Shown: piece after piece, positions 24,191-61,923 of the stretch
Position numbering within the stretch: the first letter of the stretch is position 1
How the letters are laid out: each line of letters starts with the position of its first letter
NCBI GenBank assembly: GCA_009015555.1
Contig: GCA_009015555.1_3613.1
DNA from: a phage
Direction: 5' to 3' (one strand)
DNA: 64,000 bases
Made by a program: the position numbers and the translations under genes
Notes under the pieces: model-generated
Seen by the model: the letters and a program-made list of their open reading frames with translations, nothing else
Told to the model about the DNA's origin: nothing
Databases searched by the model: none

Positions 24191-24325
24191 AAGTTCTCTT
24201 TTGACGGGCACTTGTTAACGACCCGCAGAATGACGACGGTGTACAACGGCGTTTGATGGCGAGGAAGGTCTATAGGGATCAGCGCAGATCCTTGGATGTC
24301 AGGTGAGCCGTACAAAAGAGAATTT

Positions 24326-24413
24326 GGGGAGTTATTTCCGTAGAGGTAGCGGTGCAGACTGTAAATCTGTTGTCATTGCGACTCGGGTGGTTCGACTCCA
24401 TCACTCCCCACCA
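24326..24413 (+). tRNA. tRNA-Tyr (anticodon GTA), long variable arm
   Basis: Acceptor ggggagt/actcccc, anticodon loop ctgtaaa, T-loop ttcgact, CCA. Confidence 0.75.
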
Positions 24414-24419
24414 AATTAT

Positions 24420-24514
24420 AGTAGGATGGCTGAGTGGCTTAAAGCAGCATCTTGGAAAGGTGTCGGATCAGGTAACCCCTGGTCCCGGGAGTTCAAATCT
24501 CCCTCCTACTGCCA
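24420..24514 (+). tRNA. tRNA-Ser (anticodon GGA), long variable arm
   Basis: Acceptor agtagga/tcctact, anticodon loop cttggaa, T-loop ttcaaat, CCA. Confidence 0.7.
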
Positions 24515-24518
24515 GACC

Positions 24519-24595
24519 GGATCGTTAGCTCAATTGGTTAGAGCAAGGGACTTTTAATCCCGAGGTTCGGGGTTCGAGTCCCTGACGGTCCACCA
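24519..24595 (+). tRNA. tRNA-Lys (anticodon TTT)
   Basis: Acceptor ggatcgt/acggtcc, anticodon loop cttttaa, T-loop ttcgagt, CCA. Confidence 0.75.
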
Positions 24596-24760
24596 GAAAG
24601 GAAGAGGGTCCAAGCTGGTAATGCGAGAGGCGAGTCCTCAGACCAAAGCCCAGATGGAGGCCACCCTAAAGTCGTCCAACCGAAGGTCCCTGATTGAGTA
24701 ATACTTCCCCGCTTGTCGGGTACAGTTCTCAGTCACACCGGAAGGGGCGCACCCTATAAT

Positions 24761-24836
24761 TGACGGTGAGCATATAAGGACATGCGGGGGCCTGTTAAGT
24801 CCAGGATAGCTGGTTCGAATCCAGTACCGTCAGCCA
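24761..24836 (+). tRNA. tRNA-Asn (anticodon GTT)
   Basis: Acceptor tgacggt/accgtca, D-stem gcat/atgc, anticodon loop ctgttaa, T-loop ttcgaat, CCA. Confidence 0.7.
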
Positions 24837-24945
24837 ATTTGGTTCCGACAAGGTGACGGCGCACCCCGGAGCGACGCTGAAAGATGCAGGCCGACGAACA
24901 CATACGTGTACTTAATCAATAGTCATTGCGATGGCTATTCGTTAA

Positions 24946-25023
24946 GTCCTGGTAGACAAACTGGATAAAGTCACCACCCTTTCAAGGTGGGGTTTGAGGG
25001 TTCGATCCCCTCTCAGGACGCCA
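24946..25023 (+). tRNA. tRNA-Glu (anticodon TTC)
   Basis: Acceptor gtcctgg/tcaggac, anticodon stem ccacc/ggtgg, loop ctttcaa, T-loop ttcgatc, CCA. Confidence 0.75.
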
Positions 25024-25117
25024 ATCTTTTAGGTCGGTAGATTAATGAGCAAAGGCCGCTCGCTGGATTCCAACCCCAGTTCAAGGCGTTCGATTCGTCA
25101 CCTTCCTGCCAAATTCA

Positions 25118-25193
25118 GGTCCTATGGTATTAGCGGTAAACATACTCGCCTGTCACGCGAGAGTCACGGGTTCGAATCCCGTTAGGACCGCCA
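25118..25193 (+). tRNA. tRNA-Asp (anticodon GTC)
   Basis: Acceptor ggtccta/taggacc, anticodon stem ctcgc/gcgag, loop ctgtcac, T-loop ttcgaat, CCA. Confidence 0.75.
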
Positions 25194-25200
25194 CTTCAAA

Positions 25201-25275
25201 TGGGGATTAGCTCAGGGGTAGAGCGCACAACTGATAATTGTGAGGTCGGTGGTTCGAAACCACCATCCCCAACCA
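25201..25275 (+). tRNA. tRNA-Ile (anticodon GAT)
   Basis: Acceptor tggggat/atcccca, D-arm gctc-aggggta-gagc, anticodon loop ctgataa, T-loop ttcgaaa, CCA. Confidence 0.75.
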
Positions 25276-25345
25276 AACAGCCCCTCCCGGGATTGGACCG
25301 GGTTAACGGCAATCGCACACTGAGGCGTCTTCCGGGGGAACAATA

Positions 25346-25422
<77 letters not shown>

Positions 25423-25428
25423 AATTAT

Positions 25429-25503
25429 TGCGAGGTAGTTCAGCGGTAGAACAGGGGTTTCATACGCCTCATGTCGGCAGTTCGATTCTGCCCTTCGCAA
25501 CCA
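25429..25503 (+). tRNA. tRNA-Met (anticodon CAT; initiator, elongator or Ile-lysidine type not distinguished)
   Basis: Acceptor tgcgagg/cttcgca, anticodon loop ttcatac, T-loop ttcgatt, CCA. Confidence 0.7.
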
Positions 25504-25509
25504 AATCAT

Positions 25510-25587
25510 GCTCCAGTAGCCCAATTGGTAGAGGCACTTGATTTAGGATCATGTCAGCGATGAGTTCGAATCTCTCCTGGAGTACCA
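25510..25587 (+). tRNA. tRNA with TAG anticodon (Leu by anticodon), short variable arm, weak T-stem
   Basis: Acceptor gctccag/ctggagt, anticodon stem cttga/tcatg, loop tttagga, T-loop ttcgaat with only ~3 bp T-stem, CCA. Confidence 0.5.
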
Positions 25588-25593
25588 CATAAA

Positions 25594-25667
25594 GCGGGCA
25601 TGGTATAGTGGTTGTGCCTTAGCCTTCCAAGCTAATGAGTCCGGTTCGATCCCGGATGTCCGCTCCA
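25594..25667 (+). tRNA. tRNA-Gly (anticodon TCC)
   Basis: Acceptor gcgggca/tgtccgc, anticodon stem ttagc/gctaa, loop cttccaa, T-loop ttcgatc, CCA. Confidence 0.75.
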
Positions 25668-25740
25668 ATTCACGGTGAGTCACTGCCGTTAAGTGTGAAG
25701 TTAAAAATGCCCGTGGTGATCGGGTTATCTCACCCAGTGT

Positions 25741-25816
25741 AGGGGATTAGTTTAATTGGTAAAACATCGGGTTTTGATCCCGACATCGCGAGGTTCGAAT
25801 CCTCCATCCCCCGCCA
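25741..25816 (+). tRNA. tRNA-Gln (anticodon TTG)
   Basis: Acceptor aggggat/atccccc (A1-C72 mismatch), anticodon stem tcggg/cccga, loop ttttgat, T-loop ttcgaat, CCA. Confidence 0.7.
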
Positions 25817-25898
25817 CATTAATGCTCATTAGCTCTTGTCAGTGGAACTCGAACCCTTAGAGCAGGCGACACAGACGTGTGTTTTAGTGAGCATCAAT

Positions 25899-25974
25899 GT
25901 GGCCTTAATTCAGCAGGTAGAATCCCCGGTTGTGAACCGGGCAGTCGTGGGTTCAAGTCCCACAGGTCACCCCA
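25899..25974 (+). tRNA. tRNA-His (anticodon GTG)
   Basis: Acceptor gtggcct/aggtcac, anticodon stem cccgg/ccggg, loop ttgtgaa, T-loop ttcaagt, CCA. Confidence 0.75.
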
Positions 25975-25978
25975 ATCT

Positions 25979-26071
25979 GGAAGATAGGGCGTAGTGGTAC
26001 GCACCCGGATTTGAACCCCGGCCCGCTGTGGCGACCCCACGGTGATAGTTCGACTCTATTATCTTCCGCCA
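25979..26071 (+). tRNA. tRNA-Ser (anticodon TGA), long variable arm
   Basis: Acceptor ggaagat/atcttcc, anticodon loop tttgaac, long variable arm, T-loop ttcgact, CCA. Confidence 0.65.
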
Positions 26072-26092
26072 CCCCTGATCATAAGGCAAACT

Positions 26093-26785
26093 ATGTTAGA
26101 AATGTTAACAGTGGGTAAATACACCCCTAGTCCTATAATTTCTAGCCCTATGGATGCTTATTTTGAGGGCGAGAGGAATAATAAATACGGCACTGTTGAG
26201 TGGGTTGTTCCTCAAGGCGTCACCTCAATCTGCTGTGTAGTGATAGGCGCAGGATCTTCTGGCAGAAGCGGCGGTCTTTCTTGGAGAAACAACATTCCAG
26301 TTACACCTGGTGAAAAACTTAAAATGCAGGTTAACTCCACAGCCAGCGCCCTCTTGAGAGAGACAACTATCCTTTGTGCTGCCCAGTGTGGCGGCAACGG
26401 AGGAAAAACATATAACTCTGTGAACGACGGTGGAGGCAATGCTGGACAATCACCACATGGTAGAGGTGGTGCTGGCGGCTACACCGGGAATGGTGGTGAT
26501 GGGCATACGTTCACAGGTGGTCCAGGACCAGGGTCCCCAGGTTCAGGTGGCGGCGGCGGCGGAGGCGCAGTTGTGTATCTGAACGGATCATTGACACCAA
26601 CTGTCTGCGGCGGAGTCGGCATGTATGGACAGGGGTCGAATGGTGGCGCTGATAACAGCGCCGGATATCCAGGCTCCGGCGGTTCTGGAACAAGATACGG
26701 AAGAGCAGTCGATGGTTATGGTGTTGTCAGGGTTGTGTGGGGAAATTATTCATTCCCAACAAATGCCCCGAGACCGAAATCCTGA
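26093..26785 (+). CDS. glycine-rich hypothetical protein (~230 aa) embedded in tRNA array
   Basis: Start taken at MLEMLTVGKY (track ORF start at 26042 lies inside tRNA-Ser); Gly-rich GGxGG runs and C-terminal GYGVVRVVWG. Confidence 0.5.
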   Translation: MLEMLTVGKYTPSPIISSPMDAYFEGERNNKYGTVEWVVPQGVTSICCVVIGAGSSGRSGGLSWRNNIPVTPGEKLKMQVNSTASALLRETTILCAAQCGGNGGKTYNSVNDGGGNAGQSPHGRGGAGGYTGNGGDGHTFTGGPGPGSPGSGGGGGGGAVVYLNGSLTPTVCGGVGMYGQGSNGGADNSAGYPGSGGSGTRYGRAVDGYGVVRVVWGNYSFPTNAPRPKS

Positions 26786-26856
26786 TAGGGATGGTCCCTA
26801 CGAGGATCGTCTTTTGCTCAGTGGTACTCAGCATTTACTTAGTATTCAAACAATAT

Positions 26857-26943
26857 AGAAGAGTGGCGAAATAGGTAGCCGCACCGGACTGCTAATCCGG
26901 GGTCCTTCGGGGCCTGAGAGTTCAAGTCTCTCCTCTTCTGCCA
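26857..26943 (+). tRNA. tRNA-Ser (anticodon GCT), long variable arm
   Basis: Acceptor agaagag/ctcttct, anticodon stem ccgga/tccgg, loop ctgctaa, T-loop ttcaagt, CCA. Confidence 0.75.
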
Positions 26944-26948
26944 AGCAT

Positions 26949-27024
26949 GGAACTGTAGCTCAGTTGGTAGAGCGGTTGCCTGAAGAGCAGCGCGTCAGCG
27001 GTTCAAATCCGTTCAGTTCCACCA
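26949..27024 (+). tRNA. tRNA-Phe (anticodon GAA)
   Basis: Acceptor ggaactg/cagttcc, D-arm gctc-agttggtaga-gagc, anticodon loop ctgaaga, T-loop ttcaaat, CCA. Confidence 0.8.
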
Positions 27025-27066
27025 CATTCTAACAAGAATAAAATATCTCCTCTCCTTCGCCTCAGT

Positions 27067-27091
27067 GCCCTCCTTCGTGGAGGGCTTTTTT
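27067..27091 (+). terminator. Rho-independent terminator closing the tRNA array
   Basis: gccctcc-ttcgt-ggagggc hairpin followed by tttttt. Confidence 0.65.
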
Positions 27092-27130
27092 ATTTCTGGT
27101 TTCGGTGATAAAATACCCAAAGGAGGTATT

Positions 27131-27502
27131 ATGACAACTTTCATATTGAAGTACAAGAAGTACCTGATCGGCATCGGGGTCGCGGCCCTTCTGCTGTTCT
27201 CCTTTAATTGGTATGTCGGCACCAAGGAGGATGCGGCTTATGACCGTGGCTTTCAGTATGCAAACACCCAGTGGGAGAAAAAGGGAAAAGAGTACGTTGA
27301 TCTTATCGACAAAGGTAAGGCTGACAACACGGCTCTTAATGAAGAACTGGCTCGGGTATCTGAGGAAAAGCGTAAGCTGGAAGAAGCCCGCCGTCATAAT
27401 GTAAACGACAAACAGGTCGAATACAACAAAACTGAAGCCGCCCGGAAGAAAGGGTTGGACGATGACTTTGTGGATCTGTACAACGAATCCTTGGGGGACT
27501 GA
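27131..27502 (+). CDS. i-spanin-like (Rz-like) inner-membrane lysis protein
   Basis: AAAGGAGG RBS; N-terminal TM helix LIGIGVAALLLFSF then charged coiled-coil region. Confidence 0.58.
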   Translation: MTTFILKYKKYLIGIGVAALLLFSFNWYVGTKEDAAYDRGFQYANTQWEKKGKEYVDLIDKGKADNTALNEELARVSEEKRKLEEARRHNVNDKQVEYNKTEAARKKGLDDDFVDLYNESLGD

Positions 27503-27816
27503 TGAGAAAATTTATTCTCGGAATGTTCATGGTTCTGGCACTGTCAGCGTGCAGCAACAAAGACAGAATCCCAGAGGTTGCCTTCAAGGGCACCACGGTA
27601 GAAGACCTTGTAGATAAGCCGGACCGAGAGCTAATGCGTAAGGCTCCACCAAAGCAGTACCTCAAGAAAGGTACAGACAACGGTGAAGGCGCGGTTGTTA
27701 TAAGTAACAACAACTTGCGGGCAGCGACAGTCGAGCGCAGGCTCGAAGACCTCCAGCAATACGTCTGCAACCTCTTCCAAGACCCAGTTGGGGAAGTCTG
27801 CGTAAAGGGTAAGTGA
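27502..27816 (+). CDS. o-spanin-like (Rz1-like) outer-membrane lipoprotein
   Basis: Lipobox LALSAC after signal peptide; ATGA overlap with upstream i-spanin-like gene. Confidence 0.62.
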   Translation: MRKFILGMFMVLALSACSNKDRIPEVAFKGTTVEDLVDKPDRELMRKAPPKQYLKKGTDNGEGAVVISNNNLRAATVERRLEDLQQYVCNLFQDPVGEVCVKGK

Positions 27817-51915: not shown

Positions 51916-51944
51916 AAAGGGAGCCTCTGGCTCCCTTTTCTTTT
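51916..51944 (+). terminator. Rho-independent terminator
   Basis: gggagcctctggctccc followed by ttttctttt. Confidence 0.6.
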
Positions 51945-53497: not shown

Positions 53498-54142
53498 ATG
53501 GCAGAGGAAATTGTACTGAAGGATGTTAACCACATCCACCCTCTGCCGGATTTCGTGAAGGGAGGTTTTGATTACGTCCCTTCCGATATTTTCACAGGCA
53601 AAGAGAACTTCGAGAAGACCCTCCGGATCTTGTTGGAGCGCCTTGAGTATATCGACCAAAAGATGGTTGAACTTGCTGAACTGCGTACCACATTGAACGC
53701 AGAAGACGCCATCCTTGACGAAATCGGCAGACAGTTGGGCATTTACCGTAACGGCCTGAATGACCCCGAGTACCGTGCTGTTATTATGATCTTGACCGGG
53801 AACAACTCCAAGAGCGGGACCCGCGCCGATATCATTGCCACCCTGAAGCAACTCTTCGGGGAAGACGGAGTTACGACCTACAAGGGGCACAACTACCGTC
53901 TCGATATTAACATTTTCAATACCTGTATGGAAGTCACCGACATCCTGCCGGAGATCATCGACATGCTTCCCTTGGTCACTCACCTCCGTGTGGTTGAGAA
54001 CCAGGGTTACCCATTCGGTTTCAACGGTGACGCACAGGCATTTGGGTTCGCATCGGTTTATGACTCAGAGCGTACCGGGGCAGGTGGCATGTCCACCCTA
54101 ATTTATGTATCGGACGACGAGGAAGACTGGTCGTTCACGTGA
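53498..54142 (+). CDS. baseplate/tail protein (I-like, putative)
   Basis: Position following J-like gene. Confidence 0.4.
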   Translation: MAEEIVLKDVNHIHPLPDFVKGGFDYVPSDIFTGKENFEKTLRILLERLEYIDQKMVELAELRTTLNAEDAILDEIGRQLGIYRNGLNDPEYRAVIMILTGNNSKSGTRADIIATLKQLFGEDGVTTYKGHNYRLDINIFNTCMEVTDILPEIIDMLPLVTHLRVVENQGYPFGFNGDAQAFGFASVYDSERTGAGGMSTLIYVSDDEEDWSFT

Positions 54143-54152
54143 GGAGATTTTC

Positions 54153-55808
54153 ATGGCTAAACCAAAGGACCCTATTTACGTTTGGGCTGCTGCCGACGTA
54201 AACCTTCCAGGCACGGGTCGTCCTAACAAATCAAAACCTATTGACGACTTGCTCGCCAAGGGTTACGATAAAGGACAAAAGCCAGCAGCAGAAGAGTTCA
54301 ACTATATCCTGAATATGTCCTCTGCCTGGGTTAACTGGATCGTCAACGAGAAGTTTCCAGAGCTTGAGGCAGAAATCGCCCGGCTCTTGGCAGAACTTGA
54401 AAACCGCATCAACCAGCAGTTGGCTGTTATCCGTCAGGATATTGCCCAACTGAAGCAAGATGTCGCAGACCTTCGTCGGTATGTCGATCAGAAGGTTCAA
54501 GAACTGAAGCAAGAAATCCAAGGCGTCCGAAACGACCTGAACAAACTGCGTCAAGACTTTGATGCTGCGATTGCTCAAGTCAACGGACGAATTGATGACC
54601 TTGAGCCACGCCTTGTTCCAATCGGTGCCGTTATCCCTTGGCCTGGGGCTACAGTCCCTAACGGCTGGTTGGAGTGTAACGGCCAGGTGTTTAATACCGG
54701 GACAAACCCTAAGCTGTATGGAGTCTTGGGGCGTAACGTTGTTCCTGACTACCGTGGTCTCTTCCTGCGCGGCTGGGCACACGGCTCCGGTGCTAACGAT
54801 CCTGATGCTGGTCGTGCTCTCGGTTCTGTTCAGGGTGACGCCATCCGTAACATCACGGGTTACTTCCCTGCGGATATCGGTCAGTCAGGCTGGATCGGTC
54901 GTTACGTTGGTGGTGTGTTCCGGGACGATGGCGCACTGACCTCTGGTGACCAAGGATCTCGTAGTGGTGAAGTACGTAAGTATAGCCTCGATGCTTCCCG
55001 CCAGGTCCCAACGGCCCCGGAAAACCGTCCGAAGAACGTCGCGGTTATGTACATCATCAAGACTGACCAGGCACAATCCTCCGGAGGCAACTCACCAACG
55101 GCGATCGTCGTCTCTCCAGACACAATCACCAACCGTGTAGGATACACCGTCAAAGCGACTGCGAGTGTACTCCCTGCTTCCATCGCAGGTCAATACCCTG
55201 TAACATGGTCTACTCAAAATGCTGCGGTGGCAACGGTTGATGGTTCTGGCAACATCCGCCTTGTAGGGCCGGGTGAAACCAACATCATCGCTTCCATCTC
55301 TACCGGGATGAACGTAGCGATCCGTGTGACGAGCTATTCTGTTCTGACCAGCATCTCCATTGCTGATCCGGGCCAGATTCCGGTCACAGAATCGAAGATG
55401 CTGGTTGTTACCAAAAACCCGGGGAGCGCGAACGAACCTCTGCAATTCCTGTCAAATAACTCCGGTGTTGCGACTGTGAACGACGCAGGTTACGTAACTG
55501 GTGTTTCCCCGGGAAGTGCCACAATCACGGTTCGTGGTACTCTTTCCGGAGTGTCATCAACTCGTTCAGTGACTATTATCCCTGAGCAAGTGGAGGAGAG
55601 CGTACAGGACAACCGTCTCGGTGCGGTAGGATCTTACATCCCACCCGGCAACGAAATCAGTTGGACTTTCCAAGCCCCTCAAGGTTGTGCTCTGACAGGT
55701 ATCATCGTACAAGACGTCGGGTCCAACTCCGCCGACAACATCGGTGGTGTTTATTACAAACCGATCCAGAAGAAAGTTAACGGCGTCTGGGTCACGATCA
55801 CGGGGTAA
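54153..55808 (+). CDS. Tail fibre protein with coiled-coil, tail-collar-like and Ig-like regions
   Basis: RBS GAGGAG; heptad region LAELENRINQQLAVIRQDIAQLKQDVADLRR; IPWPGATVPNGWLECNGQ...PDYRGLFLRGW resembles phage tail-collar domain. Confidence 0.62.
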   Translation: MAKPKDPIYVWAAADVNLPGTGRPNKSKPIDDLLAKGYDKGQKPAAEEFNYILNMSSAWVNWIVNEKFPELEAEIARLLAELENRINQQLAVIRQDIAQLKQDVADLRRYVDQKVQELKQEIQGVRNDLNKLRQDFDAAIAQVNGRIDDLEPRLVPIGAVIPWPGATVPNGWLECNGQVFNTGTNPKLYGVLGRNVVPDYRGLFLRGWAHGSGANDPDAGRALGSVQGDAIRNITGYFPADIGQSGWIGRYVGGVFRDDGALTSGDQGSRSGEVRKYSLDASRQVPTAPENRPKNVAVMYIIKTDQAQSSGGNSPTAIVVSPDTITNRVGYTVKATASVLPASIAGQYPVTWSTQNAAVATVDGSGNIRLVGPGETNIIASISTGMNVAIRVTSYSVLTSISIADPGQIPVTESKMLVVTKNPGSANEPLQFLSNNSGVATVNDAGYVTGVSPGSATITVRGTLSGVSSTRSVTIIPEQVEESVQDNRLGAVGSYIPPGNEISWTFQAPQGCALTGIIVQDVGSNSADNIGGVYYKPIQKKVNGVWVTITG

Positions 55809-55813
55809 TTAAC

Positions 55814-56329
55814 ATGCGTATGAATAACTTCAAACACTACAACCCGAAGGCGAAAGCCTTCGGGGACGGTGTTCAATATTTTTCTGATGACAAGGGCCGT
55901 GATTTTTACGAGAGTCTCGGCCTGTTTACCAAGAAATATGCGGTCCTTTTCGATGAGTTCGGAATGGTCCGCTTCTTGGTCAAGTCTGTGGATATTTCTA
56001 TGACTTATCCATTGGGCCTGTCTATTTCTGACCTGAACAGCATCCCAAAGGACTTCGACATCATGAAGGGGCCTTGGATGTTCGATGGGAAGAAAATTAC
56101 CAAGGTGGACTTCGACTTGGCTATCGGAACTGCCAAGCGTAAGAAAGCCATCATGGGGTCTCTGTCCAGCCAGATCACACCATTGGCTGATGCAGTGGGA
56201 CTGGGTGAAGCAACAGAAGAGGAGATTGAGAAATATAATGCTCTTCTGAAACTTCGTGTTAAGCTAAATCGGATCTCTGATGACACTCCCGCGAGTGAAA
56301 TTGATTGGTCTGAGTTCACCGCTGCATAA
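55814..56329 (+). CDS. hypothetical protein, possible tail fibre assembly (171 aa)
   Basis: Position immediately after fibre gene. Confidence 0.38.
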   Translation: MRMNNFKHYNPKAKAFGDGVQYFSDDKGRDFYESLGLFTKKYAVLFDEFGMVRFLVKSVDISMTYPLGLSISDLNSIPKDFDIMKGPWMFDGKKITKVDFDLAIGTAKRKKAIMGSLSSQITPLADAVGLGEATEEEIEKYNALLKLRVKLNRISDDTPASEIDWSEFTAA

Positions 56330-56370
56330 CCTTTCAGGCCGGGTATTTGCCCGGCCCCAGGAGAACACAC

Positions 56371-56709
56371 ATGGCTCTTGATATTATGTTGATTCTGAAG
56401 TCTCTTTGGGGTTTGGTGACTTTCCTTCTGTTGGGGGTACTCAAAATCTTTTATTCCGACTTCAAGAAAATGCAGGAGAAGCAGGACGCTCTTGAAAAAG
56501 ATCTGATTCGGCTTCGTGGTGAGATGGTCAGCAAAGATAGTATTGATGACATCCTGGATCGTAAGATCAAGCATATCACCGACACTATTGGCGACATTCG
56601 TGCCGACATCACTGACATGCGGAAAGAGGCCAAAGAAGAGACTAACGCTCTTCAGAAGGACATCCGCTCCGTACTTAACGTCATGTTGGAGAGTCGTCGC
56701 AACAAATGA
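56371..56709 (+). CDS. small membrane protein with coiled-coil C-terminus
   Basis: RBS AGGAGA; N-terminal TM LILKSLWGLVTFLLLGVLKIF. Confidence 0.45.
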   Translation: MALDIMLILKSLWGLVTFLLLGVLKIFYSDFKKMQEKQDALEKDLIRLRGEMVSKDSIDDILDRKIKHITDTIGDIRADITDMRKEAKEETNALQKDIRSVLNVMLESRRNK

Positions 56710-57164
56710 TCACGTCCATTATTTTTGGACTCTGCTTCGTCATCCTGGCAACTCGCCCGGATGCCGGGGCCAAGATTATGGCGGGGCTTGGCCTCGCCTA
56801 TCTTGTTCTCGAAAACCTGATGTTTTGGTTTTTCAGCGGGGCCGAGTTCTTCGACATCACGCTGTACTTTACCACAGCTTGGGCATTGGATTCAATACTT
56901 TTATTTGCCGTGGCACTCTTTGTCCGAGGGTATCGTCAGGTCGCTGTTTTGGCGCTGGCCCTGCCTCTGATGCTGGTACAAGTATTCGCAATCCAATATC
57001 CAATCTTATTCCCCGATTGGGTTTATTCCTTCGCCGTACAGGATGCACACAGGTATTTCATCGAGGTGTTTATCTTCGTCTATTCCTGGAAGGACAATAC
57101 AGTCTCCGAGTGGCTCAGAACAGGAACCGTTCTGGCACTTGTTATTGTTGCCCATCTGGTGTGA
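56706..57164 (+). CDS. polytopic membrane protein (about 4 TM)
   Basis: Four hydrophobic segments; ATGA-coupled to upstream membrane protein. Confidence 0.5.
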   Translation: MITSIIFGLCFVILATRPDAGAKIMAGLGLAYLVLENLMFWFFSGAEFFDITLYFTTAWALDSILLFAVALFVRGYRQVAVLALALPLMLVQVFAIQYPILFPDWVYSFAVQDAHRYFIEVFIFVYSWKDNTVSEWLRTGTVLALVIVAHLV

Positions 57165-57187
57165 CGCATTGATAATGAAGGTGTTCT

Positions 57188-57451
57188 ATGCTAAAATTCT
57201 TCAAAGACCTCGTAACTTCCCCCATCGAACCTGACAAGGCTTCCCACACGAAGTTCTGGTCAAACGTGGGTATGGCGGCTATGACGGCAGTTTTCCTCTG
57301 GTACGGCTTCAACAACACCCTCCCGGAGTGGTATGTTTGGGTTTATGCACCCACAGTAGTAGCACCTCACCTTCTGAGTGACCTCATCAATCTTCGTTGG
57401 GGTATTGCCAAGAAAGAGTCGGAAGTTTCCAACAACGAAGAATCCAAATAA
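57188..57451 (+). CDS. small membrane protein (87 aa)
   Basis: Hydrophobic segment MAAMTAVFLWYGF, charged C-terminus. Confidence 0.42.
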   Translation: MLKFFKDLVTSPIEPDKASHTKFWSNVGMAAMTAVFLWYGFNNTLPEWYVWVYAPTVVAPHLLSDLINLRWGIAKKESEVSNNEESK

Positions 57452-57463
57452 GAGGAGATTCGC

Positions 57464-60400
57464 GTGTCATCCAATACTGATATCATTGCCCTGTTGAGCA
57501 GCGATGCTGACAAGGCAGTTGACCAGATCATCGAAGACTCCAAACGTCTTCACATCGTGGTCAACGGGACGGGCACCGAGCAGGCTGTTGCAGAGGATGG
57601 GAGCTTGCTCCCGTCTGTTCGCAAAGCGCTGATCGACAACCTGTATTTCAAAACCCCACCTCTTCCCTGGAGAAACGGTGGGTCTGTCAACGAGTTCAAC
57701 CAGCTTTACTCCTTCACCGACGTAAGCGGGAACACCACTTGGTGGTATGCGCCCGGAGCTACGGTATCAAACCCGGTTGTGATGCGTGACAGCCCGATCA
57801 ATGACGGCAAGTTCAAGGTTTTCTTGGACAAAACCAACATCGCCGATATCTATGCCCCTCTGAACTCTCCGAACTTCGTCGGTAACCCCCGTGTGCCTAC
57901 CCCGGCCCCTGGCGACAACAGCCAAACCGTCCCGACAACCGGGTGGGTTCAGTCAGAGATGCAGGACCTGGAAGACCAGATCATTGCCTCTATGAAGGGT
58001 GATTTCGAAAACATCACCGTCCGTAACGATGCCGTTCTCAAAGACACGTATATCAGCGGTGAGTTCATTGTCACCAGTGATAAGTTGTCCGCTGCCAGCG
58101 CCGAAGCAACCTTCCGTCGTATTCGTGTGGTCGGCACCGCAGACAATACTGAGATCGCTTTTGAGCAGAACACCGCACCTCCAGCGGGGGCGAGCACAAA
58201 GACTAACATCAAGCCGTACACGATGTCAACAGGCATCTTGACGATTGACCAGTTGAAAGGAAAATCTGCCCAGATTGGTGATGTTGCTGTTGCCACGGAC
58301 TCCCTGAATGTCGATGGGTACATGCGTGGGGATTACCTGCATCTGGAAGGTAACAACCGAAACAGCACAACCCGCCCTCAGTTGATCGTTGATGGTATTG
58401 CAGAGATCAATACGCTGCGGGTGACTGGAACCATCGAGGGTGTAAAAGCTGATGTTGATGGCTTGGATATTCATCCTCGTAGTGTTATCATCGACGAAGG
58501 TTTGACGGTTGGCAAAGATACCTCCCTGACAGGAAAGCTGACTGTCGGCGGTACAACCAAGGTGAATAACCTGGAGGTTACTGGAACCCTGTCTGGTGTT
58601 GCTATCAGTGTTGACGGTAAAGACATCAAGCCCCGCTCTGTTAACACCGGGAACTTGGTTGCTACTGGCAACGTGCAGATCAGTGGGACGACCACTGCAA
58701 CCGGGAAGATCACAACTCAAGATCTTGAAGTGCTTGGCACACTGACAGCTAACCTCGACCTGTCCGGGTCGGATCTGAGTGTTGATAATATCAACGTTGC
58801 AGAAACCGCGACAATAAAGGATTTGGTGGTTACCGGAAAAACAACCGGGGTCAAAGGTGACGTTGATGGAACCTTGATCAAGCCTTCTTCTGTTCAGGCA
58901 ACGGGCCTTGTGTCAGCAGGTTCATTGTCTACCAATGCAAATGCCTCTATCGGGGGTAACCTGACGGTGACTGGAGAGTTCCGTCCCGCCAGCATGGAAA
59001 CAGGTGCAGTTGAGGCAGATAGTCTGGTTGTTAATGGTAACATTTCCCAGACGACAGGAACAACCTCTGTAGTCAACCTGGTTGTCACAGGAACGACAAC
59101 TGGCGTAACAGCCGATGTCAATGGTGACGACATTTTGCCTCGCTCCGTGACTACTACTGCGGGGGTTAAAGTCGGAACCACCCTCGACGTAACTGGAAAG
59201 ACTACCCTCGGAGATGTTGATTTCACTGGGGTTGTTACCGGGCTTGAACTTGATCTTTCTCAAAAGAACGTGACAGTTAAGTCAATTGCTGCTGTAGATC
59301 CTTCTGCATTTGGGGATGTGACGACAGATAATCTGACCAACAGCGAGAAGATCATCACTCAAGACATCCAAGTTCTGGGTGATATTCTGGATGCTGCGGG
59401 GAATCCTGTCAACACCTTTGATGTTACAGGCAAAGATATTCTGCCAAACAGTGTTCAATCTGCGACGTTTATTCGCGGAAAAACTCTGGACATCAGTGAC
59501 GGTTCCACCCTCCGTGGCCCTGTCGAGTTCCGTAACGGGCTGACAGTAACTCTTGGAGACATCATGTCGCCCCAAGGGAAGGCAACGTTCAACGATGTAC
59601 AGGTCAATGGTGCATTGACGGACGCTAACGGCAACGTCATCGGCTCCGTTGAAAGCATCAAGGGCAAGGACATTGAACCACGCTCCGTTGTGGCTACCGT
59701 GTCTGTACAGGCCCCTCGTCTCCAATCAACTGGGGATATTTTGGGCCAGAGCGCGACAATCACCAATAACGTCTCTGCGGGGACCTTGGGTGTTTCCGGG
59801 TTGACAAACCTGGCAGAAACTCGTGTGAATGCGAAGCTAACAGGGCAATCCACAGAGTTCGAAACTCTGCTCCTGAAGCGCGTTGCTGGTCAAGATACAC
59901 CTCGCTTGGTTGTGCAGGGGGATTCAGATCTCCAGGGGGACCTGAACGTCTCGGGGACCATTACCGGGATTGTTGACCTGACGGCTCAAGATATCCGTAT
60001 GAACAGCCTTGTGCTCGCCGAGGATCTTTCTGCAAGGAATATTACAGGATCAGGCACGGTTCAGGGCGCTAATGGAATTTTCGGCCAGTCTTCCCAGCCC
60101 ACCACCCAGTACGGTTTGCAGTCTCTTTCCAGCGCTAAGGTAGATAAAAACCTCGATGTTGGAGGAAACTTGCGGGTAACTGGGGCCATTACCGGAAGTA
60201 TGGACTTCACAGGGAAGGATATTACCCCACGGAGTGTCGCGGCGTCAGCCGGAATCGGGGCCGTGGATATCACGGCATCCGGCACGACAACGACGAAGGA
60301 CCTTGTGGTCACCGGGACGACAAGTTTTGCGGGAGACAGCGTTTTCAATGCAGGCCAGGTTAAGTCCAAGTTGTTCACCGTTGACATTGGTACTGATATC

Positions 60401-60688
60401 ACTTCAGGATCGGGGTCTTGGATTCCAGACGGGCTTCAGTCCGTTTATAACGTGACGGTTACCGCCGATACCGTTATCGGTTCCATTGCTCAGTTGCCGG
60501 GCGCGGGGACTTACTTCTTCTATATCGAGCAGGATGCTGTTGGGGGCCACACTGTGACCTTTGACCCAGCTTACCTCAAGATTGGTGATGGAGAAGTGGC
60601 TACAGCGCCAAACGCAATCTCTCTGGTCCAAGTAATCTACCGTGGTAAAGGTTCAATCTTCGACTACGTGATTCTTAACCGAGGTTAA
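57464..60688 (+). CDS. Long tail fibre protein with internal repeated modules (GTG start)
   Basis: 1074-aa protein with repeated VTGT..GV..DVDG.DI.PRSV units; RBS GAGGAG before GTG. Confidence 0.62.
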   Translation: MSSNTDIIALLSSDADKAVDQIIEDSKRLHIVVNGTGTEQAVAEDGSLLPSVRKALIDNLYFKTPPLPWRNGGSVNEFNQLYSFTDVSGNTTWWYAPGATVSNPVVMRDSPINDGKFKVFLDKTNIADIYAPLNSPNFVGNPRVPTPAPGDNSQTVPTTGWVQSEMQDLEDQIIASMKGDFENITVRNDAVLKDTYISGEFIVTSDKLSAASAEATFRRIRVVGTADNTEIAFEQNTAPPAGASTKTNIKPYTMSTGILTIDQLKGKSAQIGDVAVATDSLNVDGYMRGDYLHLEGNNRNSTTRPQLIVDGIAEINTLRVTGTIEGVKADVDGLDIHPRSVIIDEGLTVGKDTSLTGKLTVGGTTKVNNLEVTGTLSGVAISVDGKDIKPRSVNTGNLVATGNVQISGTTTATGKITTQDLEVLGTLTANLDLSGSDLSVDNINVAETATIKDLVVTGKTTGVKGDVDGTLIKPSSVQATGLVSAGSLSTNANASIGGNLTVTGEFRPASMETGAVEADSLVVNGNISQTTGTTSVVNLVVTGTTTGVTADVNGDDILPRSVTTTAGVKVGTTLDVTGKTTLGDVDFTGVVTGLELDLSQKNVTVKSIAAVDPSAFGDVTTDNLTNSEKIITQDIQVLGDILDAAGNPVNTFDVTGKDILPNSVQSATFIRGKTLDISDGSTLRGPVEFRNGLTVTLGDIMSPQGKATFNDVQVNGALTDANGNVIGSVESIKGKDIEPRSVVATVSVQAPRLQSTGDILGQSATITNNVSAGTLGVSGLTNLAETRVNAKLTGQSTEFETLLLKRVAGQDTPRLVVQGDSDLQGDLNVSGTITGIVDLTAQDIRMNSLVLAEDLSARNITGSGTVQGANGIFGQSSQPTTQYGLQSLSSAKVDKNLDVGGNLRVTGAITGSMDFTGKDITPRSVAASAGIGAVDITASGTTTTKDLVVTGTTSFAGDSVFNAGQVKSKLFTVDIGTDITSGSGSWIPDGLQSVYNVTVTADTVIGSIAQLPGAGTYFFYIEQDAVGGHTVTFDPAYLKIGDGEVATAPNAISLVQVIYRGKGSIFDYVILNRG

Positions 60689-60690
60689 TA

Positions 60691-60716
60691 CAGCCGCCTT
60701 CGGGCGGCTTTTATTT
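60691..60716 (+). terminator. Rho-independent terminator
   Basis: agccgccttcgggcggct followed by tttatttt. Confidence 0.65.
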
Positions 60717-60726
60717 TGGAGGTATT

Positions 60727-61923
60727 ATGTTTCCTTTTGCTATTATTCCACCGTTTGTTCTTTCAGGCAAGGAAAAAATCAAGCAGTTTTCGGTTACGTC
60801 TTACGACAGTATGGTCCTGACTGATAAGGGGAACCTGTATGTTACAGGATTCAACCGGGTGGGTGAGCTTGGTGTTGGGGACACAACTAACCGAAATAAC
60901 CAATGGGTTTTGGTAATGCAGGACGTAAACTGGATTGCAAGCAACCGTGAGAAGCTGTGGGCAATTAAGAACGACGGTTCCATTTACACCCCGGATCTTC
61001 GGTCATCCAGTACAACTGCATATACTTGGCAAATCGACACGGTAGCACCTGGAAGTATTGGGGATTTGTCTGGGGATAATATCAAGGAGATTTACAGCGA
61101 CACAGAGAGCGTATATATCCTCAAAAAGGATGGTTCACTGTGGTATCTGGGAAATAACTCTAAAGGCCAAGCTGGAAACGGGGGAACTTCCTTAACCACA
61201 CGCTTTGTGAAGGTTTCAGATGGTGTGGTATCTTGGTCATCCAGTGGACCCACTGTTGTTTTCGTGAAAACAGACGGATACTTCTGGGGCTGCGGATCAA
61301 ATTCCCGAAATATCATTTCCTCTGCTGGCAGCAGTATCACAACCCCTACCCGGATGTTTAGCACCACCCACGCTGACGGAGGTGTTGTAACAGATTACAC
61401 GCTGGCCTCTGACCAAGCGTTTTTGATCAGATATAGTAATGGTAAATATCGTACCAAAGGTCTCAATATCGGACAACTTCCTTCAGGGGATGCAAGTCCA
61501 TACAATACCCTTACGGACGTTCCTGACGGATACACCCCCGGTGATGGAACGGAGCCTCTGGTAAGCAAAACAGGAGGGGTGTCGGCCTCTGGAACTTGGC
61601 CTAACTATAGTGGTCTTTTCTTCTACCATACGGGAGGGAAATTCATAGTCACTGGTCAAGCAAGCGGGAGAATTTCCGGGACCAGCCAAACCAGCGGTAC
61701 ACTCTCAAACTGGACCAATGTCGATGCGGCAAGTGACGAGATCCCATCTATCAAGGGAATGACCTTCGGACTGGGTTGGGTTGCTGCCTACAACGATACG
61801 CAGATTCTGTACTGGGGGTATACGGGAAACTCCTCTGCATATCCGGTTGTGGGATACCTAATGCCCGGACCTTCAAGGCTTGAATATGTGGCACGTTTTG
61901 CAACCCCGCCGATCGAGGCATAA
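60727..61923 (+). CDS. RCC1-like repeat (beta-propeller) protein
   Basis: Recurrent G.N..GQ.G.G / LG.G units (GFNRVGELGVGD, GNNSKGQAGNGG, GLNIGQLPSG). Confidence 0.5.
   Translation: MFPFAIIPPFVLSGKEKIKQFSVTSYDSMVLTDKGNLYVTGFNRVGELGVGDTTNRNNQWVLVMQDVNWIASNREKLWAIKNDGSIYTPDLRSSSTTAYTWQIDTVAPGSIGDLSGDNIKEIYSDTESVYILKKDGSLWYLGNNSKGQAGNGGTSLTTRFVKVSDGVVSWSSSGPTVVFVKTDGYFWGCGSNSRNIISSAGSSITTPTRMFSTTHADGGVVTDYTLASDQAFLIRYSNGKYRTKGLNIGQLPSGDASPYNTLTDVPDGYTPGDGTEPLVSKTGGVSASGTWPNYSGLFFYHTGGKFIVTGQASGRISGTSQTSGTLSNWTNVDAASDEIPSIKGMTFGLGWVAAYNDTQILYWGYTGNSSAYPVVGYLMPGPSRLEYVARFATPPIEA

Follow-up and report, generated by a model that had tools for sequence, protein, structure and literature searches.

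Introduction

In phage T7, the holin gene 17.5 directly follows the fibre gene 17, the spanin genes are located next to the terminase gene and the endolysin is encoded far away from both. Phage P2 encodes LysA, a protein of 141 amino acids (aa) with four transmembrane domains (TMDs), which affects the timing of lysis and is nonessential in P2. Phage Mu itself has no holin; its releasin gp25 belongs to DUF2730, a family that has been reported only from transposable phages, with the releasin gene positioned within five genes downstream of the endolysin gene. For the group of rV5-like phages, the holin has either been reported as unidentified or been assigned, by topology alone, to genes that are not conserved. 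In the paper on rV5 no holin homologue was found and gp129 was proposed on the basis of its topology, the authors of the LL12 and KPP-1 papers were unable to identify the holin, and the paper on KP12 puts candidate holins beside the endolysins. In this study, a stretch of 64,000 nucleotides of phage DNA (assembly GCA_009015555.1, contig GCA_009015555.1_3613.1; referred to as the window in the following) was analyzed, in which three consecutive genes for small membrane proteins, called M1, M2 and M3, are found among the tail fibre genes at positions 56371 to 57451. Homology, genomic context and predicted form together make it rather probable that M3 serves this phage as its holin, or as one of several. 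This would be a likely holin from a family that has not been named as such, filling the gap stated for this phage group.

Results

M3 matches phrog_1322 (4.5e-32) over residues 1-85. When 1.84 billion representative proteins were searched with a profile of the M3 family, 181 representative clusters were obtained at E <= 1e-3. All 146 relatives tested matched phrog_1322, and eight of them matched the Pfam family DUF2644 (PF10841) at E <= 0.01; one close relative of M3 is labelled DUF2644 in public tables. Conversely, when only relatives from outside the rV5-like group were used to build a hidden Markov model (HMM), the model found M3 as the sole match among the 513 open reading frames (ORFs) of the window, with a score of 70.8 bits and an E-value of 2e-21 (7.5e-15 when scaled to 1.8 billion sequences), and model positions 3-80 aligned with M3 residues 5-83, that is, end to end. 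A relative from a lysis cassette, P0278, matches PVP-SE1 gp42 even by plain tblastn (39% identity, 2e-5). M3 and the members of phrog_1322/DUF2644 have in common an SHTKxWxN motif, two helices, an SKxLSxRYG motif, a charged tail and an alignment over the full length. They differ in the second helix, which contains Pro and His in M3 and is rich in Gly and Ala in the relatives, and in their location, since M3 is encoded in a fibre operon whereas the relatives are encoded between endolysin and spanins. A subgroup of the relatives has an extra N-terminal TMD. None of the GenBank records and PHROGs, Pfam and NCBIfam entries checked gives the name holin to phrog_1322 or DUF2644, PHROGs places phrog_1322 in the category 'moron, auxiliary metabolic gene and host takeover', and a literature search on DUF2644 found no paper. 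Pfam and NCBIfam searches with M1, M2 and M3 themselves returned nothing useful on function.

The genomic surroundings of the M3 relatives point to a role in lysis. On the Mu-like contig L016, Mor and a cytoplasmic M15 endolysin are followed by the M3 relative P0265 (4-nt overlap) and an i-spanin gene in which a lipobox o-spanin is embedded; farther along the contig, a 114-aa protein with a TMD and a coiled coil is encoded at the position of Mu gp25. On the metagenomic contig L019, the order is GH108 endolysin, P0278, i-spanin and o-spanin, and an order of endolysin, M3-like protein and spanins was also found in Pseudomonas phage Bise, Ralstonia phage RS138 and the 93-kb Pseudomonas phage Dolphis. 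In the cassettes examined, the M3-like protein is the sole non-spanin membrane protein between endolysin and spanins. A scan of IMG/VR gave 381 relatives, and 80 loci were analyzed. Directly upstream of the M3-like gene, 54 of the 80 loci encode a peptidoglycan hydrolase recognised by Pfam (VanY/Peptidase_M15_4 in 37 loci, Amidase_2 in 15, CHAP and Peptidase_M15_3 in one each). On the downstream side, a lipobox ORF lies within 1.1 kb of the M3-like gene in 57 loci, and the adjacent ORF has an N-terminal TMD in 43. The endolysins of these cassettes belong to at least four unrelated folds and several are without any export signal; cassettes with endolysins of the latter kind therefore need a hole-forming holin. 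A hairpin membrane protein with a charged tail that recurs between endolysin and spanins is a classical holin signature.

The layout of M3 comprises a short N-terminal cytoplasmic segment with the motif SHTKFWSN, a two-helix membrane hairpin and a charged C-terminal tail (KKESEVSNNEESK). The helices predicted by AlphaFold span residues 20-41 and 47-71. The hairpin is also obtained from the family-averaged hydropathy, with flank charges of +1.3, -0.4 and +2.0 as expected from the positive-inside rule. By prediction, M3 hence has the form expected of a holin: it is small, is anchored in the inner membrane by one or more TMDs and ends in a charged tail on the cytoplasmic side. Its size, hairpin topology and charged tail are similar to those of class II holins.

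In addition to lysis cassettes and fibre operons, the M3 family was found in a third context. In T4-like Busanvirus and in Xanthomonas jumbo phages, the M3-family gene is a solitary one next to the DNA polymerase gene, on the other strand (Table 1). Some of the lone T4-like copies bear an extra N-terminal TMD. At three further loci (L030:1146-1484, L032:1228-1563 and L018:111-440), the M3-like gene is preceded and overlapped by the gene of a protein of about 110 aa, which has a coiled coil and a C-terminal TMD and takes the place of the endolysin. This protein is reminiscent of M1, with the anchor at the opposite end, and may be a recurring holin partner.

The window derives from a Certrevirus, subfamily Vequintavirinae (rV5-like myophages). 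Identity to the region amounts to 99.1% for Cronobacter phage PBES 02 and to 93-97% for CR3, CR8, phiTE and CB7, all of which are Certrevirus phages. In annotated relatives the genes for baseplate wedge, short tail fibre and fibre assembly are followed by three for small membrane or hypothetical proteins and those for the long fibre and an RCC1-repeat protein. The first-pass annotation, which was made from the letters of the window alone, had described M1 to M3 as an interruption of the fibre gene series, and this is indeed the arrangement found: all three ORFs are present on the plus strand (M1, given there as 113 aa, has 112 aa plus stop), with the fibre-assembly and short-fibre genes upstream and the long-fibre gene downstream. 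As for M3, there is a separate PHROG for M1 (phrog_5345, 3e-45) and for M2 (phrog_7451, 1.7e-75), and tblastn found M1 in 222, M2 in 107 and M3 in 374 phage records. The M1 protein is 100% identical to its counterpart in phage CR3, the DNA being 97.4% identical; the protein is thus unchanged despite a DNA difference of 2.6%. The three ORFs are therefore regarded as genuine genes under selection and not as products of chance. Translational coupling had been claimed for the whole trio. It applies to M1 and M2, with the M2 start lying over the M1 stop (ATGA), whereas M2 and M3 are separated by a 23-nt spacer with its own ribosome-binding site (GAAGGTG), and M3 and the long-fibre gene by a 12-nt spacer, likewise with its own ribosome-binding site. 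Of the one, about four and one TM segments assigned to the three proteins at that time, only the single N-terminal one of M1 agrees with the present predictions, which give about six helices for M2 and the two-helix hairpin for M3.

Table 1. Positions of the genes and elements discussed; plain numbers refer to the window, other positions to the record or locus named
Feature	Position	Strand	Description
i-spanin	27131-27502	+	N-terminal TMD (YLIGIGVAALLLFSF) and charged coiled coil
o-spanin lipoprotein	27502-27816	+	MRKFILGMFMVLALSAC lipobox (LSAC); start overlaps i-spanin stop; directly before TerL
Short tail fibre	54105-55808	+	Collar and Big_2 domains; phrog_12846; PBES 02 annotation; phiTE short tail fibre
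Tail-fibre assembly protein	55814-56329	+	PF02413 Caudo_TAP 2.5e-12; phrog_136 9e-41
GC-rich 8-bp hairpin	56337-56356	+	Within the 41-nt spacer that separates M1 from the fibre-assembly gene; not followed by a U-tract
M1	56371-56709	+	112 aa plus stop
M2	56706-57164	+	152 aa
M3	57188-57451	+	87 aa; putative holin
Long tail fibre	57464-60688	+	phrog_4549; PF26208/PF26209 Phage_phiTE_241_N/C on homologues
RCC1-repeat (beta-propeller) protein	60727-61923		After the long fibre; annotated 'regulator of chromosome condensation'
Rival pair (SleB-like hydrolase and ADU18_0205)	PBES 02 117466-118184 (L010:27467-28185)	opposite	Outside the window; among replication (helicase, primase) genes
Lone M3-family gene, Acidovorax ACP17	L026:4926-5363		By DNA polymerase
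Lone M3-family gene, Xanthomonas BUDD	L108:3459-3752		By DNA polymerase
Lone M3-family gene	L021:5001-5477		By DNA polymerase

M1 is a bitopic protein with one hydrophobic peak at residues 5-23 (TMD at about 5-27), followed by a long charged coiled coil; in total it contains 21 Lys and Arg and 20 Asp and Glu residues. An N-out/C-in orientation is favoured because of the acidic N-terminus (MALD) and the FKK following the TMD, and by this positive-inside rule the coiled coil is probably cytoplasmic. M1 is regarded as a candidate for a holin regulator or a releasin-like partner. It resembles the releasin gp25 of Mu, as both proteins have about 100-112 aa, an N-terminal TMD, a predicted N-out/C-in orientation, a cytoplasmic coiled coil and an LLLEN-like C-terminal end. 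Homology between the two was considered, and an alignment by hand is persuasive, but hhalign gave a probability of 1.6%. M1 itself did not match DUF2730 (PF10805) at E <= 1, DUF2730 matched five of 28 M1 relatives at E >= 0.004 and was no commoner among them than unrelated coiled-coil families, and the best E-value of an M1 HMM against 2,833 ORFs of Mu-like loci was 0.034, with ORFs at the gp25 position crowding the top of the list. Since hhalign, Pfam counts and HMM are all at noise level, homology was rejected and the analogy was kept. M1 is also unlike the releasins in its location, as it follows the fibre-assembly gene and no endolysin is encoded within the window. The conservation of M1 across genera with different endolysins suggests that a role as holin regulator is more likely than endolysin-specific release. 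The name 'DUF2746', which NCBI gives to one M1 relative, was not reproduced among the Pfam hits listed, and the searches did not support the labels 'ATP synthase subunit b protein' for M1 and 'putative serine protease' for M2 in PcCB7V (L002, MW367417). We judge these names to be over-annotation from architecture.

M2 is polytopic. The Kyte-Doolittle scale gives four strongly hydrophobic segments, and the AlphaFold model (pLDDT, the predicted local distance difference test score, 87.3) has about six helices (2-15, 20-44, 51-72, 76-97, 104-127 and 133-151). Within the helices, D50, D62 and E120 are invariant or near-invariant (alignment A6). PF26221 (Phage_phiTE_239) was found on 42 of 42 M2 homologues in precomputed tables, including one that is 98% identical to M2; the family is named only after the phiTE gene and has no function attached to it. 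A Foldseek search with M2 against the PDB gave mostly rhodopsins with a best E-value of 0.8, which is meaningless, and a search against BFVD gave only unnamed phage proteins of about 150 aa. M2 is comparable to P2 LysA in being polytopic and of similar size, and in being dispensable, in this case in rV5 and phi92. Kinship of the two proteins was rejected, with an hhalign probability of 0.8% and no sequence similarity. M2 could be an accessory factor of lysis timing or an exclusion factor.

The whole trio is present in Certrevirus, in Seunavirus (gp44, gp43 and gp42 of PVP-SE1) and in related genera, and also in Aeromonas phages of the genus Plateaulakevirus. In Aeromonas phage 2L372D (MK804893), an unannotated ORF for a polytopic protein of 146 aa (L009:5514-5954) between an M1-like and an M3-like gene is the positional counterpart of M2, which implies that the trio is older than Vequintavirinae. 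In rV5, M1 (gp31) and M3 (gp29) are kept and a fibre paralogue stands in the place of M2; M3 of the window phage and of rV5 are 53% identical. In phi92, M3 (gp144) and the M1-like gp149 are encoded 3.7 kb apart and M2 is absent. M3 is thereby a core gene across Vequintavirinae, the phi92/phAPEC8-like phages and the Aeromonas Plateaulakevirus phages. From the arrangements in rV5 and phi92 it follows that M1 and M3 belong to the core of a broad group of myophages, that M2 is dispensable and that M1 and M3 do not need to be adjacent. In all cases (Certrevirus, Seunavirus, rV5, phi92 and the Aeromonas phages), the gene in front of M1 is that for fibre assembly, and the one behind M3 encodes a large fibre or a wedge protein.

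Strong terminator-like sites around the trio are found only at 51916 and 60692 (60692-60709), and between 51938 and 60692 no terminator-like site with a strong stem was detected except for one within M2. The trio and the long-fibre gene are assigned to the wedge-fibre operon between the sites at 51916 and 60692, and no convincing promoter belonging to the trio itself was found. Two overlapping sigma-70-like matches at 57148-57197, where M2 ends and M3 begins (one of them 10/12 with an extended TG), were not accepted as promoters, because the predicted transcription starts would remove the ribosome-binding site or the start codon of M3. The spacer upstream of M1 contains a GC-rich hairpin (Table 1), which was not called by the terminator scan. 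The region 56326-56385 folds with -23.5 kcal/mol (z = -3.58), and none of 200 shuffled sequences folds as well. A weaker second stem at 56358-56380 pairs the AGGAG/AUG region of M1. The hairpin with this second stem could be an element for RNA stability or translation control.

With regard to the neighbouring genes, the mechanical ORF of the short fibre starts at 54105, residue 17 is the first one covered by its phrog_12846 match and the protein annotated in PBES 02 is shorter. Given the position of the match and the shorter protein, translation probably begins at the ATG at 54153 (MAKPKDPIY). A third putative fibre has been mentioned for phiTE, and the RCC1-repeat protein probably corresponds to it. 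Between a block of tRNA genes and the large terminase gene, 29 kb from the trio, lies the spanin pair (27131-27816), with at least 13 tRNA genes at about 24300-27100 directly upstream according to the PBES 02 annotation. As noted at first pass, neither an endolysin nor a holin gene neighbours this pair, which consists of a TMD protein and a lipobox protein encoded before TerL; an Rz/Rz1 pair is described in the CB7 paper as well.

Discussion

The first-pass annotation had proposed the trio as a holin/antiholin cluster and as the best holin candidate in the window. The latter still applies; the published rival of PBES 02 lies outside the window. The former is supported as far as M3 is concerned, by its firm membership in a family that fills the holin slot of many unrelated phages, its size, its hairpin and its charged tail; an antiholin or other specific role of M1 and M2 is conjectural. 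A possible course of events is as follows. M1, M2 and M3 would be transcribed late, together with the baseplate-wedge/fibre operon, and M3, a two-helix hairpin with both ends on the cytoplasmic side (N-in/C-in), would enter the inner membrane and build up there harmlessly. Upon reaching a critical concentration, or upon loss of the membrane potential, it would oligomerise into holes and metabolism would stop. The holes would let or trigger a separately encoded cell-wall hydrolase to attack the peptidoglycan, and the Rz/Rz1 spanins encoded beside the terminase would then break the outer membrane. M1, tethered by its N-terminal helix, might act like an antiholin, its coiled coil binding to the M3 tails in the cytoplasm, or free a signal-anchored hydrolase in a releasin-like manner. 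M2 may be a further modulator, which rV5 and phi92 can do without. Both would thus be accessory inner-membrane proteins made together with M3, most likely to tune the time at which it fires.

A further-reaching version of this proposal, which we consider unlikely when all its parts are taken jointly, regards the trio as a three-part lysis clock within the fibre operon. M3 would be the hole-former, M1 the tethered cytoplasmic regulator and M2 a partner that senses or conducts protons by means of its buried acidic residues, and the timing of lysis would be tied to fibre completion or to superinfection signals. Mu-like, rV5-like, phi92-like and some T4-like phages would then have DUF2644/phrog_1322 in common as a widespread holin family that has gone without a name so far, and M1, in phages that are not transposable, would work like the Mu releasin or even be very distantly related to it.

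If M3 is a holin, this would complete the lysis pathway of a phage group whose rV5-, PVP-SE1- and phi92-like members are among the enterobacterial phages most often isolated and applied, permit engineering of the lysis timing in these phages and correct the 'moron' label in PHROGs. In addition, a function would be proposed for the Pfam family DUF2644 in Mu-like phages with cytoplasmic endolysins, complementing the finding that Mu itself is devoid of a holin.

Several observations weigh against M3 as the holin. Neither endolysin nor spanins are encoded beside it, the spanins being 29 kb off and the hydrolase outside the window. M3 is only moderately hydrophobic, and because no 19-residue window reaches a Kyte-Doolittle value of 1.4, earlier annotators gave it one or zero TM segments; in line with this, TMHMM and Phobius predicted no TMD in its rV5 homologue gp29. 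M3 does not match PF10841 even at E <= 10 and reaches no holin family of Pfam, and as so few of its relatives reach the PF10841 model, its membership is at the level of a superfamily. An hhalign comparison of M3 with the holin Y of P2 gave nothing, and a link to the T7 holin is suggestive only. The 80 loci with M3-like genes are not independent of each other, because related Mu-like elements dominate among them, and the late transcription of the trio is deduced from gene position. No experimental test of any member of phrog_1322/DUF2644 was found. Furthermore, M1 and M3 stay linked to fibre genes across three phage groups, which a pure lysis model does not explain. Finally, another gene of Certrevirus has been put forward, with the CB7 paper naming a 65-aa two-TMD protein that overlaps a SleB-like hydrolase as a strong class II holin candidate.

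This last point leads to the view that the true holin is encoded elsewhere (ADU18_0205 in Certrevirus, gp129 in rV5) and that M3 is an antiholin, a second holin or a pinholin. ADU18_0205 of PBES 02, a protein of 62 aa with two clear TMDs, overlaps the stop of a SleB-like hydrolase that appears to be secreted, since its MKK- start and long hydrophobic N-terminal segment rich in Ala and Ser form an N-terminal export signal, which could be cleavable or an anchor of the signal-anchor-release type. The proposals in the CB7 and rV5 papers agree with this view, as does the position of the KP12 candidates beside the endolysins. However, ADU18_0205 occurs in only 13 phage records, all of Certrevirus type, has no charged C-terminal tail and belongs to a neighbourhood of helicase and primase genes on the other strand, whereas in the cassettes of the M3 relatives no membrane protein other than the M3-like one and the spanins lies in the holin slot. 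We regard this explanation as unlikely as well; ADU18_0205 might serve the secreted SleB-like hydrolase as an additional holin or pinholin that is specific to the genus.

Superinfection exclusion or immunity, by which the trio would block related phages or shield the progeny from debris, had been named as the alternative at first pass. T4 Imm has 83 aa and two TMDs and T4 Sp has 97 aa and one TMD, which are sizes and topologies similar to those of the trio. The trio adjoins receptor-binding genes, comparable to the receptor-masking Llp of T5 and to Z/fun of P2 beside fibre genes, PHROGs places phrog_1322 among morons, M1 has a weak match to the bacteriocin-immunity PHROG phrog_1625 (E 0.004) and M2 is gained and lost between genera like an accessory gene. 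Apart from that weak match, though, no known exclusion PHROG was reached by M1, M2 or M3 at E <= 0.01, and the slot between endolysin and spanins, in which a hydrolase precedes most of the M3 relatives analyzed, is not a site for exclusion genes. A late structural operon without a convincing promoter of the trio's own would moreover provide poor timing for exclusion, and M1 and M3 belong to the core across subfamilies, as illustrated by the identity of M3 between the window phage and rV5. Weakened by core conservation, late-operon placement and lysis-cassette relatives, exclusion is kept as a rather improbable explanation. A role in the assembly of tail fibres or baseplate, for instance as membrane scaffold or chaperone, or as minor virion components in DNA entry, appears more improbable still. 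It would fit the strict synteny with assembly, fibre and wedge genes, and some GenBank records call the M3 homologue of the phi92 type a 'structural protein'. In CB7, on the other hand, both flanking fibres were confirmed by tandem mass spectrometry (MS/MS) of virions and the equivalents of M1 to M3 (CB7_33-35) were not, the supplementary gene table of rV5 has no mass spectrometry mark on gp29 and gp31, and the paper on the cryo-electron microscopy structure of the phiTE baseplate, which consists of nine proteins and three fibres, mentions no membrane proteins. Members of the M3 family in Mu-like, Dolphis-like and T4-like phages are also not linked to fibre genes. The option stays alive because the linkage of M1 and M3 to fibre genes persists unexplained.

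Among described systems, the arrangement proposed here, with M3 as the putative holin, is comparable to that of T7. T7 gp17.5 is a class II holin (PF10746, Phage_holin_2_2) which, like M3, is small, forms a two-helix hairpin with a charged C-terminus and is encoded next to a fibre gene, and in both phages the lysis genes are dispersed, with the spanins beside the terminase. There is also a local resemblance between M3 and gp17.5 (LxEW[FY] ... K..I..[KR]). Homology of the two proteins was not accepted, with no Pfam match and hhalign E-values of 0.036 (alignment A5) and 0.007, the latter with a probability of 5% over 30 columns (alignment A7). The holin T of phage T4 is not known to be related to M3; it has 218 aa, one TMD in place of the two helices of M3 and a large periplasmic domain, and RI and RIII act as its antiholins. 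Its gene t is reportedly placed after gene 38. The organization of T4 would nevertheless resemble that of the window phage in its dispersed lysis genes, in a holin gene that closes the fibre block and in separate regulators of the holin, located in the membrane and in the cytoplasm.

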